A DNA stretch of 10,622 nucleotides from a virus: UHGV virus genome UHGV-0118722; one strand, given 5' to 3'. The translations under genes and the position numbers were made by a program. Shown here piece after piece: positions 7,219 through 10,622 of the stretch. How positions within the stretch are numbered: position 1 is the first letter of the stretch; every line of letters begins with the position of its first letter. The notes beneath the pieces are model-generated. The model searched no databases, was not told the origin of the DNA, and saw only the letters and a list, made by a program, of their open reading frames with translations.

Positions 7219-7821
7219 TTAATTTCCTGCTTTCAGTTGCTTAAGACGACGTTTGAGTTCGCCATTCCGTGCCTTTTCGTTATTGAGTCGGCCCGTCTCC
7301 TTATCCAGCTTCGCCCGCAAATCAGTGATCTGCTGTTGATTGAAAGACACCGAATTCTGCGCGGACTTATAAGCGGCAACCACCTGAGCATTCCGCTGTT
7401 TTGCTTCTTGCAGGCGCTGAAAGTTGGATTTAACTGCCGGTTTCTTGTCTACCGGATTGGCAACACGCTTCGCTTTGGCGATCAGTGATTTCTGGAATTT
7501 TGCGGAGTTTTTGCGGGCCGCCTGTCCCATGACGGTACCAAGCGTCTTGATATCCGGCGACTGAGCGTTAGGAATAGCTTTTCCATTCAGTTTCACAGAC
7601 GATATATCGCCAGTATCGTTTACCTGTATGGCAAGAATTTGTCCGTCGTTAAGAACCAGCTTTGCGGTTTTAACTTTAACGCCATCTTTCGTTGTTGCGC
7701 GGTTGCTGGAGTCAACCTCAATTACCGTAACCCCGGTTTTATTGATCGCCGCGATAAGGGATTTCAGCCCCTTTTCATTAACCTGGTCAAAATCGACCGT
7801 TGCATACTTATTTTTCGTCAT
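7219..7821 (-). CDS. hdf: 200-aa paralogue of the central part of the downstream 639-aa protein, Hdf-like
   Basis: The ORF track gives 7219..7830. I prefer the second ATG (7819-7821) because AGGA lies 8 nt upstream of it, whereas the first ATG has no usable spacing. Shared motifs with the 639-aa protein include KNSAKFQ, encoded by a 21-nt stretch that is 20/21 identical between the two genes. Confidence 0.7.
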   Translation of the reverse strand: MTKNKYATVDFDQVNEKGLKSLIAAINKTGVTVIEVDSSNRATTKDGVKVKTAKLVLNDGQILAIQVNDTGDISSVKLNGKAIPNAQSPDIKTLGTVMGQAARKNSAKFQKSLIAKAKRVANPVDKKPAVKSNFQRLQEAKQRNAQVVAAYKSAQNSVSFNQQQITDLRAKLDKETGRLNNEKARNGELKRRLKQLKAGN

Positions 7822-7830
7822 CTGACACAT

Positions 7831-7991
7831 CCTGTGCGAGATTTATTACGTAACTTCTGCGGATTTGCTGAGTAACAGGGAAAATCCGATACAACGGGTT
7901 AATGAACGAGTCGCCATGCGTAACTATGACGTTGAAATGCCACAGTCGCTCTCCTTTATGCAAAGTAACTTCTCAACCGGTCATTTGTTGC
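7831..7991 (-). promoter_or_regulatory. 160-bp intergenic region upstream of the operon; possible internal promoter or operator
   Basis: Non-coding gap between two minus-strand genes. It contains the 7-bp inverted repeat CGGATTT-N15-AAATCCG at 7860-7888. No promoter hexamers could be assigned confidently by eye. Confidence 0.3.
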
Positions 7992-8273
7992 TTAAGAGGC
8001 ATTTCTATTGAGGTACGAATCGATAATCCTTTGTAACTTTTCAAGAATGAGCCTGTTATTGATGCTGCAAATAATAGTCACGCAATTCTGAAGACTTTCA
8101 TCCATACCCTTATATTCCGCGAAATACATGCCTATAAAGCCTGCAAGTACGGCAGCAATACACTCGGCCATCAATTGCCTGCATGACGCTTCGTAACGTT
8201 TTTCACGAACCCCATTCAGAAACGAATGCACCCCGCCAAGGATGGAGAGGAGCATTATTGTGAAATCAAACAT
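7992..8273 (-). CDS. Small two-helix membrane protein (93 aa), holin-like
   Basis: GAGGAAA ribosome-binding site 7 nt upstream of the ATG (8271-8273). Two hydrophobic segments (FTIMLLSILGGVHSF and IAAVLAGFIGMYFA). It is the first minus-strand gene after the divergent region next to the invertase. In P1 the lyd holin genes head the darA operon, so it may be LydA-like, but I do not recognise the sequence. Confidence 0.6.
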   Translation of the reverse strand: MFDFTIMLLSILGGVHSFLNGVREKRYEASCRQLMAECIAAVLAGFIGMYFAEYKGMDESLQNCVTIICSINNRLILEKLQRIIDSYLNRNAS

Positions 8274-8400
8274 AACTATTTCCTCAATAGTGAATTAAAT
8301 CTCATTGGGAAACGGTATGTACTTTGTGATTTCCACACATACTGGTTTTTGTTAATTAAAATCAGCAGCTTGCTATAAATAACGATAGTGAGCAGAAAAT
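8274..8400. promoter_or_regulatory. Divergent intergenic region between the holin-like gene and the invertase
   Basis: 127-bp AT-rich spacer between divergently oriented genes. It contains an imperfect palindrome GTATGTACTTTGTGATTTCCACACATAC (8315-8342), the palindrome TTAATTAA (8352-8359), and TTGCTATAAATAACGATAG just upstream of the invertase ATG. Confidence 0.35.
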
Positions 8401-8961
8401 ATGCTAATAGGCTATGTACGCGTATCAACAAATGAACAAAACACTGCTTTACAACGAAATGCCCTTGAAAGCGCAGGATGTGAGCTAATTTTTGAGGACA
8501 AGGCGAGCGGCAAAAAGGCTGAACGCCCTGGGTTAAAAAAGGTTCTTCGTATGCTTTCCAGAGGTGACACCCTGGTCGTATGGAAGTTAGATCGTCTTGG
8601 GCGCAGCATGCGTCACTTAGTTGTGCTGGTGGAAGAGCTGCGTGACAGAGGCATTAACTTCCGGAGTCTCACTGACTCCATCGACACCAGTACACCAATG
8701 GGGCGCTTTTTCTTTCACGTAATGGGGGCGCTGGCAGAAATGGAACGTGAACTTATTGTTGAACGTACACGCGCTGGACTTGATGCAGCTCGCGCAGAAG
8801 GTCGAATAGGTGGGCGTCGGCCTAAATACCAGAAAGAAACATGGCAGCAAATGCGGCGATTGCTGGAGAAGGGCATCCCCCGTAAGCAGGTTGCAATCAT
8901 CTATGATGTGGCTGTTTCCACTCTTTATAAGAAGTTTCCGGCGTCATCATTTCAATCCTAA
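8401..8961 (+). CDS. cin: Serine DNA invertase of the Hin/Gin/Cin/Pin family (186 aa)
   Basis: N-terminus [22 protein letters not shown] with the catalytic Ser in VRVST, the conserved ...[12 protein letters not shown]...[14 protein letters not shown]...[19 protein letters not shown]... core, and a C-terminal helix-turn-helix ...[20 protein letters not shown]. It closely resembles Gin and Pin as I recall them. I use the symbol cin because of the P1-like context, but pin or gin is equally possible. Confidence 0.93.
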
Positions 8962-8978
8962 ACCTTGGTTTAAGAGAA
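8953..8978. other. 26-bp crossover site for the serine invertase (hix/gix/cix-like)
   Basis: CAATCCTAAACC-TT-GGTTTAAGAGAA has palindromic inner arms AAACC/GGTTT around a central dinucleotide at 8965-8966, the same architecture as hixL (TTCTTGAAAACC-AA-GGTTTTTGATAA). The invertase stop codon (8959-8961) lies in the left half-site. Confidence 0.75.
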
Positions 8979-10004
8979 CTCGGTACCAGCGGTGAAAAGA
9001 TCCCCCTGTTGAGCACGGCTAACACATGGAGTGCACGCCAGACTTTCAACGGCGGGATCACCGGGGCGCTGACAGGGAACGCCGATACCGCAACGAAATT
9101 GAAAACAGCCAGAAACATTAATGGCGTCAGGTTCGATGGTTCTGGTGACATTAATATCAATACTCTGGTATCGCGCGGTCGCGTAACGGCCCTGGAGGCG
9201 AATGCACAGGGAACATCCGGGATTCAGCTGTATGAGGCATACAACAATGGCTACCCTTCCCCCTATGGCAATGTGCTTCACCTTAAAGGTGCCACCGCTG
9301 CTGGCGAAGGTGAGTTATTCATTGGCTGGAGTGGCACGAGCGGTGCCCATGCGCCCGTACATATCCGTTCGCGGCGGGATACTGATTCTGCCAACTGGTC
9401 TGAATGGGCGCAGGTCTATACGTCAAAAGATTCAATTCCCGGCGTCAATGCCAAAGGGGATCAGGATACCTCTGGTAATGCGGCTACAGCGACCAAGTTG
9501 CAGACAGCATGTACTATCAACGGCGTCTCGTTTGACGGTTCTAAAAATATTGAGCTAACGGCGGAAGATTTAAATCTACAGGAAACGGTAAACAAGGCTG
9601 ATAACGCGGTTCAAAAGACAGGCGATATCTTGTCCGGTGGACTTACTTTTGAAAACGACTCAATCCTTGCCTGGATTCGGAATACTGACTGGGCGAAGGT
9701 TGGTTTTAAAAATGATGCCGACAGCGATACTGATTCATACATGTGGTTTGAAACAGGCGACAACGGCAATGAATATTTCAAATGGAGAAGTCGCCAGAGC
9801 ACCACAACAAAAGACCTGATGAATCTTAAATGGGATGCTTTGTCTGTCCTTGTTAAAGCCCTTTTCAGCAGTGAAGTAAAAATATCGACACTCAATGCAC
9901 TAAGGATATTTAATTCATCTTTTGGTGCTATTTTTCGTCGTTCTGAAGAATGCCTGCATATCATCCCTACACGAGAGAATGAGGGGGAAAATGGGCTTTG
10001 TTGA
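8967..10004 (+). CDS. Tail-fibre variable C-terminal cassette, promoterless and truncated at its 3' end by an IS element
   Basis: The frame is open from 8931 through the crossover site with no upstream gene in frame, so no start codon is expected; the ORF-track start at 9009 is a TTG. It contains repeated tail-fibre motifs [28 protein letters not shown] and [28 protein letters not shown]. Native sequence ends at 9993; the last three codons and the stop (10002-10004) belong to the IS terminal repeat. Confidence 0.75.
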
Positions 10005-10622
10005 ATAAATCAGATTTCGGGTAAGTCTCCCCCGTAGCGGGTTGTGTTTTCAGGCAATACGCACGCTTTCAGGCATACCTGCTTTCGTCATTTTGTTCAG
10101 CGCTCGTACCAGGGCCATAGCCTCTGCAACCTGACCATCGTAGTCACGCAGTGTCAGTGAACCTCCGAACAGCTGTTTTACCCGGTACATCGCCGTTTCC
10201 GCTATCGAGCGACGGTTATAATCTGTTGTCCATTTCCACCGCGCATTACTCCCGGTCAGCCGCTGATTCGCAACAGCACGGTTACGGTCTGCATATTCAC
10301 CGGGCCAGTAACCCGCGCCTTTTCGGGGCGGGATAAGCGCGCTGATTTTCTTACGCCGCAGTTCATCGTGACAGAGCCGGGTGTCGTAAGCGCCGTCTGC
10401 CGATGCTGCCCTGATTTTTCTGTGAGTCTGCCGGATAAGACCCGGGAAGGCTTCTGAGTCCGTCACATTGTTCAGCGACAGGTCTGCACAGATGATTTCA
10501 TGTGTTTTGCTGTCAACTGCCAGATGCAACTTTCGCCATATACGACGGCGTTCTTTGCCGTGTTTTTTGACTTTCCATTCGCCTTCACCAAAGACCTTCA
10601 GCCCGGTGGAATCAATCACCAG
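9994..10622 (-). mobile_element. IS903/IS102-group (IS5-family) insertion sequence, partial (continues beyond the window)
   Basis: The terminal sequence GGCTTTGTTGAATAAATC at 9994-10011 matches the IS903 inverted repeat as I remember it. The sequence just inside differs from IS903 itself, so this is a relative. It contains a transposase ORF on the minus strand. Confidence 0.8.
10050..10622 (-). CDS. IS5-family (IS903-group) transposase, C-terminal part (N-terminus lies right of the window)
   Basis: The minus-strand frame is open to the window edge and ends ...RDYDGQVAEAMALVRALNKMTKAGMPESVRIA, with ...ADGAYDTRLCHDEL... upstream, typical of IS903-group transposases. The track's start at 10619 is an internal Met. 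Confidence 0.85.
   Translation of the reverse strand: MVIDSTGLKVFGEGEWKVKKHGKERRRIWRKLHLAVDSKTHEIICADLSLNNVTDSEAFPGLIRQTHRKIRAASADGAYDTRLCHDELRRKKISALIPPRKGAGYWPGEYADRNRAVANQRLTGSNARWKWTTDYNRRSIAETAMYRVKQLFGGSLTLRDYDGQVAEAMALVRALNKMTKAGMPESVRIA

Follow-up and report, generated by a model that had tools for sequence, protein, structure and literature searches.

Does the open reading frame that follows the invertase gene cin in a 10,622-nt stretch of viral DNA (hereafter the window) represent the silent arm of an invertible tail-fibre segment, one that would give its phage a second host range upon inversion? An earlier note on this DNA had proposed as much for positions 8967-9993. Our analysis supports the origin that it assigned to the frame and arrives at a different view of its present state: 8967-9993 is very probably the 5′ two-thirds of a cin-proximal, Sv-type cassette from the Cin-invertible C segment of a P1-family phage-plasmid, pseudogenised by IS903B. 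The C-segment switch of P1 is a textbook system and the disruption of prophage genes by insertion sequences is commonplace. The locus is thus an ordinary, pseudogenised member of a known system that offers little new biology, and the main value of the finding lies in annotation.

A start-less cassette at the cixL crossover

From 1539 to 9993 the window consists of P1-family phage-plasmid DNA, collinear at about 98% with the P1 order hxr-ddrB-ddrA-darA-hdf-lydC-cin-cixL-cassette, and also collinear with many P1-like plasmids (Table 1). A 143-aa ORF on the plus strand (3971-4402), antisense to ddrB, takes the position of P1 iddB, which is nested in ddrB, and is conserved with P1.

Table 1 Coordinates of the features identified in the window
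Feature	Position	Strand	Basis or remark
ColE1-type mobilisation DNA (mbeD)	1-779
IS1-family element	780-1538		transposase frame broken
hxr	1638-1946	-
ddrB	1936-4923	-
ddrA	4936-5301	-
darA	5298-7217	-
hdf	7219-7830	-
lydC	7992-8273	-
cin, serine DNA invertase, 186 aa	8401-8961	+	Pfam Resolvase E=4e-51 and HTH_7; 185/186 identical to P1 Cin
Recombinational enhancer counterpart	about 8419-8490		5′ part of cin; 70/72 identical to annotated P1 enhancer
cixL recombination site	8956-8975	none	identical to annotated P1 cixL; crossover at central TT 8965/8966
Proximal cassette part	8967-9590	+	0.6-kb inverted repeat common to P1 Sv and Sv′; holds both motif copies
Cassette-specific part	9591-9993	+	P1 Sv-type to 9863, then P7/RCS54_p/P2-like; incomplete Gp34_trimer-like domain; ends at IS junction
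IS903B (IS5 family)	9994-10622	-	PLSDB/RefSeq 'IS5-like element IS903B family transposase' matches at 96-99.6%; Pfam DDE_Tnp_1
IS903B terminal inverted repeat GGCTTTGTTGAATAAATC	9994-10011		abuts cassette end at 9993
IS903B transposase ORF	10050-10619, runs off window	-	PF01609 (DDE_Tnp_1)

Several features of the Cin/Gin/Hin/Pin-type invertible tail-fibre segments are found together here. The cassette adjoins a serine invertase of the resolvase/invertase family, a cix site marks its boundary immediately 3′ of the invertase gene, and the cassette itself is start-less, promoterless and in frame with Sc across the crossover, as judged from the 1001-aa S protein of an intact relative (CP034659.1) and from P1 S. 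Within the site, TAAACCTTGGTTTAAG at 8959-8974 is identical to P1 cixL and occurs once in the window; the crossover dinucleotide, whose position was assigned by homology to the P1 annotation, falls 4 nt past the cin stop. The window holds neither a second cix site nor Sc, U or a second cassette.

The frame of 8967-9993 opens at 8931, directly after an in-frame TAA (8928-8930) within the 3′ end of cin, and closes at a TGA at 10002-10004; it is free of stops from the crossover to 10001. The cin stop and the cassette lie in different reading frames. There is no in-frame ATG throughout 8931-10001 and no in-frame ATG, GTG or TTG from 8931 to 9008, so that the first possible start is a TTG at 9009, followed by TTG 9099 and GTG 9273. 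No convincing Shine-Dalgarno sequence or ribosome-binding site precedes TTG 9009, and a sigma-70 scan of the plus strand over 8400-9748 revealed no promoter-like site. The description of a frame that runs through the crossover with neither a start codon nor an upstream partner in frame is therefore accurate, and the combination that the earlier note had named as evidence to the contrary, an upstream in-frame start with a promoter of its own, was not found. As for its extent, 8967 is indeed the first full codon past the crossover, while 9993 marks the junction with IS903B rather than an end of the cassette.

The composition of the cassette changes along its length. By BLAST, 8955-9590 is about 98% identical both to P1 Sv′ (L001 6100-7289) and to P1 Sv (L001 10931-10023), the latter being the cassette that is expressed in the P1 reference orientation. 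From 9590 to 9863 only P1 Sv matches, and the alignment to it stops at 9863. The remaining stretch, 9863-9993, is non-P1 and is related at 94-97% to fibre genes of RCS54_p, P7 and P2-like phages; over 9577-9994, P7, PhiR68_1 and P88 show 94-95% identity. On sequence, the switch from P1 to P7/RCS54_p/P2-like DNA at 9863 is ordinary fibre mosaicism. The tail-fibre homology, for which alignment to the S proteins of P1 and Mu had been suggested as a check, is borne out by the matches to P1 S and Sv′, by PHROGs matches to tail-fibre families (best E=3e-123) and by a match to the Mu tail fiber protein S in the PDB (5YVQ, E=1e-61), in which cassette residues 195-337 align with chain residues 161-303 of 504. 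Pfam PF21446 (Gp34_trimer) covers cassette residues 244-327, and the match is cut at profile position 89 of 116.

The two copies of a motif of about 27 residues that had been noticed in the cassette (9078-9158 and 9477-9557) are real. They share 18 of 27 amino acids and 52 of 81 nucleotides, and their local alignment score of 98 compares with 32.7 +/- 5.4 (maximum 53) in 500 shuffles (z≈12). The repeat is significant at the protein level only, and a DNA-level repeat search missed the copies, which are 64% identical as DNA. With the motif as query, tblastn hit tail-fibre genes in 398 phage records, among them T-even gp37, P2 H and genes of Pseudomonas and Acinetobacter myoviruses; both copies fit the pattern GNAxTAxKLxTxRxINGxxFDGS found in T-even gp37, P2 H and others, and the phage records that carry it bear the annotation tail fibre or long tail fibre distal subunit. 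Pfam gave no match to the 27-residue motif, even with the cutoff relaxed to E<=10. Its identification with PF03406 (Phage_fiber_2, 'Phage tail fibre repeat') was considered and dropped, because the repeat which that family recognises in P1 S is another one and lies in Sc. The motif had been called typical of receptor-binding fibre tips, and while it is a widespread tail-fibre motif, its copies here sit within the 0.6-kb stretch shared by Sv and Sv′ and are therefore not specificity determinants; they belong to the part common to both alternative fibres and not to the specificity-determining distal part.

Truncation of the cassette by IS903B

The most revealing comparison is with the intact allele in CP034659.1 (locus L018), which is identical to 8967-9993 at all 1027 nucleotides, lies on the opposite strand and is fused to Sc in a 1001-aa S gene. 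After ...ENEGENG, where the window passes into IS903B, this allele continues for another 204 residues, so that the window keeps 345 of 549 cassette residues and the distal 204 are cut off. The TGA that closes the truncated ORF is supplied by the inverted repeat of the insertion sequence, which adds two codons to the cassette (...ENG-Leu-Cys-stop). The homologous cin-proximal cassette of RCS54_p extends 536 residues from the crossover and is 191 aa longer than the window copy. Missing are the remaining part of the Gp34_trimer-like domain and all that lies beyond; a complete variable C-terminal domain with its chaperone gene (U/Tfa, Caudo_TAP) is thus absent from a cassette that stops at residue 345, and the window has no Caudo_TAP gene, which in relatives lies directly downstream of the cassette. 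In Mu, the distal region of S forms, together with its chaperone, the receptor-binding, chaperone-dependent tip of the fibre. By analogy, the lost 204 codons would include this region, and a fibre truncated at residue 345 has presumably lost its function, which makes the cassette a probable pseudogene. As IS903B has removed the distal third (204 aa), the cassette as it stands encodes no working host-range specificity, and the statement that it specifies one of two host ranges is wrong for this copy. Its description as a silent alternative C-terminal fibre segment holds in that it is promoterless and start-less, begins at the crossover and is found fused to Sc as the same allele elsewhere, and fails in that this copy is truncated.

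The junction between cassette and IS903B is real, since it is identical in all six contigs compared (L006-L011), which come from six different samples with different contig-naming styles and match the P1 part of the window at 99.7-99.98% identity. The exact truncated ORF is present in at least ten metagenome contigs. Both the window contig and the sister contigs break inside IS903B.

Three other readings of the truncated frame can be weighed against this evidence. The join could be a chimeric contig end, as the window makes up the last 10,622 nt of a metagenome contig that ends in the insertion sequence (ERZ1755931 NODE_2375, 12,346 nt) and the junction is missing from reference collections: exact-pattern scans for it returned no match in GTDB representative genomes, IMG/VR or JGI metagenomes, and no place covered at 80% or more was found by megablast with 9750-10250 as query in PLSDB or in complete E. 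coli genomes. However, an artefact would hardly recur identically across the sister contigs, nor would the insertion sequence be expected to begin exactly at its terminal inverted repeat, and we regard this explanation as exceedingly improbable. The frame could alternatively be a complete silent cassette that would yield a functional second host range upon inversion. It starts at the cix crossover, it is open and its fibre homology is real, but the longer cassettes of CP034659.1 and RCS54_p, the stop codon inside the inverted repeat and the interrupted Gp34_trimer match all speak against completeness; we count the alignment to the intact allele as refuting this reading and give it very little credence. 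Lastly, the 331-aa ORF from TTG 9009 could be an independent protein. Gene callers predict it, it goes by 'phage tail protein' in plasmid annotations, and homologous cin-proximal cassettes are annotated as CDS by PGAP. Against a stand-alone gene stand the absence of an ATG, of a convincing Shine-Dalgarno sequence and of a promoter-like site, together with the fact that the residues encoded upstream of 9009 are conserved coding sequence that runs on from Sc in the fused alleles, and such a gene is most unlikely. The 331-aa 'phage tail protein' that gene finders call here is an artefact, a start-less inversion cassette with a stop from the insertion sequence. Host-range prediction for P1-like phage-plasmids from metagenomes should leave it out of the count of intact receptor-binding proteins.

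The inversion switch and its proposed fate in this lineage

Our account of the intact system draws on the P1 annotation, on a published summary of Sc/Sv/Sv′, U/U′ and Cin/cix biology in P1 (bioRxiv 10.1101/2022.07.24.501295) and on the architecture of ten loci with identical Cin. In intact P1, gene S combines two pieces: the constant 5′ part Sc, located outside the segment and driven by a late promoter upstream of R, and one of two opposed 3′ cassettes within the segment, each with its own fibre chaperone gene, U or U′, behind it (bioRxiv 10.1101/2022.07.24.501295; P1 annotation). Cin, aided by an enhancer inside cin, recombines cixL with cixR and the segment flips, which puts the other cassette in frame behind Sc and so changes the host range, while the cin-proximal cassette, having neither start nor promoter, remains silent (bioRxiv 10.1101/2022.07.24.501295; P1 annotation). 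The arrangement seen in these loci is cin > cassette > Caudo_TAP >< Caudo_TAP < S (about 950-1000 aa) < R < gp16. Among the relatives, the cassette type of the window is cin-proximal in five loci (L014, L015, L017, L020 and L002) and Sc-fused in five, counting P1 (L016, L018, L021, L022 and P1), and its occurrence in both positions would be expected of an active switch. Contigs of the IS-bearing lineage were retrieved by an exact-ORF look-up, which is biased towards the cin-proximal form, and they showed that form alone. By homology to P1, the same inversion mechanism can be supposed for the present element. One of these relatives, L017 (JBRWIF010000001.1, a 476-kb contig), carries at 13100-20561 a P1-type block of cin, cassette and chaperone genes followed by a second resolvase-family invertase gene, with P2-type tail genes (GpU, tape measure, GpE, tube and sheath) in place of P1 Sc and R; a P1-type inversion module appears to have been joined there to the tail region of a P2-like prophage.

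We propose that IS903B inserted after cassette residue 345 and would thereby have separated the last 204 codons, along with any downstream chaperone gene, from the rest of the cassette. Inversion, if it still occurs, would join Sc to a truncated, presumably non-functional fibre that is uncoupled from its downstream chaperone.

What lies beyond the insertion sequence depends on how the truncation came about. After a simple insertion, an IS903B of about 1057 bp would be followed by GGGAAAATG and then by GTGATATAGGGCCACTACG..., which opens the remaining 204 codons, and we think it fairly probable that this is the history of the locus. The alternative is that the cassette is a stranded relic, left either because Sc, cixR and the remainder of the C segment were deleted along with the IS903B insertion, or because a P1 fragment was captured between IS1 and IS903B in another replicon; it would then have no inversion partner and could never be expressed. 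Such an origin would suit a P1-like stretch that is flanked by IS1 and IS903B, as well as the other losses that this lineage has suffered (described below). A precedent is offered by AP018397.1 (L013; 201,884 nt), in which IS26-type elements replace the C segment after an identical cin product. The predicted far junction, TTTATTCAACAAAGCC followed by GGGAAAATG and G (IS end plus 9-bp duplication), had no match in GTDB genomes or JGI metagenomes, which would also be in line with a relic. Nevertheless, short-read assemblies always break in multicopy insertion sequences, so that a missing far side is uninformative; two sister contigs (L007 and L008) show normal P1-like backbone, with an ompC-type porin gene, to the left of IS1; and a simple insertion is the more parsimonious event. 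We therefore hold a stranded relic to be possible though rather doubtful.

In further searches for the far side, a flank match in plasmid AP027831 proved to be an unrelated IS903B copy and was ruled out. A search of the protein collections with the missing C-terminal part found no orphan ORF adjoining an IS end, and a short candidate for such an ORF (P0061) turned out to be a frameshifted fibre gene free of any insertion sequence. None of the 240 proteins retrieved in two protein-collection searches had the ending ...ENGLC expected of an Sc-fused truncated form. In AP018397.1 (locus 10561-14100), the IS26-type transposase genes begin about 200 nt after cin, two IS1 copies lie beside hxr, and the P1 remnant is embedded in a large replicon.

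Other parts of the window also depart from P1. At 7957/7958, 651 nt are deleted relative to P1 NC_005856 (about 30565-31215): the holin gene lydA is gone entirely, lydB has lost its 5′ part, and the late promoter LPdar lacks four of the six bases in its -10 hexamer. The genes on either side, hdf and lydC, are intact. The deletion is common to all six sister contigs, and lydA and lydB are kept in RCS54_p and other relatives, which suggests a lysis-impaired or decaying phage-plasmid lineage. L007 and L008 bear a further deletion of 3.2 kb (equivalent to window 2979-6177) that fuses ddrB to darA in a 693-aa ORF and is more evidence of ongoing decay, in this case of the anti-restriction (dar) operon. 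At the left end, the first 1538 nt of the window, mbeD DNA and IS1 together, match one contiguous stretch of the 5.1-kb plasmid pRHB31-C15_3 at 99.2% identity, and P1-like DNA begins at 1538/1539. L007 and L008 have the same IS1/hxr junction as the window, with an ompC-type porin gene on the left side of IS1, which leaves two explanations for the left end of the window: an IS1-mediated cointegrate or an assembly chimera across IS1.

Because the junction recurs across samples, it provides a convenient marker of one decaying P1-like lineage. In a more speculative model, the interrupted cassette and the deletion of lydA, 5′ lydB and LPdar would together mark a lineage of P1-like phage-plasmids, present in human-gut and other metagenomes, that has given up part of its lysis module as well as one host-range arm. 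Such a lineage may be on the way to becoming a plain plasmid, or Cin could toggle between a working and a dead fibre, and so act as an ON/OFF switch of infectivity instead of a host-range switch. We consider this model unlikely.

Comparison with known inversion systems

The closest known system is the C segment of P1 (cin, cixL/cixR, Sv/U and Sv′/U′), whose gene order is that of the window and whose nucleotide sequence is about 98% identical to it over a stretch that runs from ddrB past cin and cixL into the cassette. Of the window cassette, the first 0.6 kb corresponds to the P1 inverted repeat and the next 270 nt to P1 Sv. Whereas Sv is fused to Sc in the P1 reference orientation, the Sv-type cassette adjoins cin in the window, and the window further differs from P1 in its non-P1 DNA from 9863, in the truncation by IS903B and in the upstream deletion of lydA and 5′ lydB. 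Among P1-like elements, RCS54_p (NZ_LT985263.1) carries a cin-proximal cassette of the same type and is 97% identical over 8401-9994, while CP034659.1 is identical throughout the cassette but holds it inverted and Sc-fused. In both, the cassette is complete (536 and 549 aa from the crossover, respectively) and is followed by Caudo_TAP chaperone genes, unlike that of the window, which stops at residue 345. Phage P7 is a P1-like phage-plasmid with the same cin-proximal cassette type, and the ompC-type porin upstream in L007 and L008 is likewise shared with P1-like phage-plasmids.

The G segment of Mu (Gin/gix, S/U and S′/U′) follows the same switch logic as the P1 C segment, and according to the P1 annotation parts of the two segments are 92-94% identical in nucleotide sequence. 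The invertase and site of the window are, however, of the Cin/cix type as opposed to the Gin/gix type of Mu, and the distal 200 residues of the Mu S chain (5YVQ) have no counterpart in the window cassette because of the truncation by IS903B.
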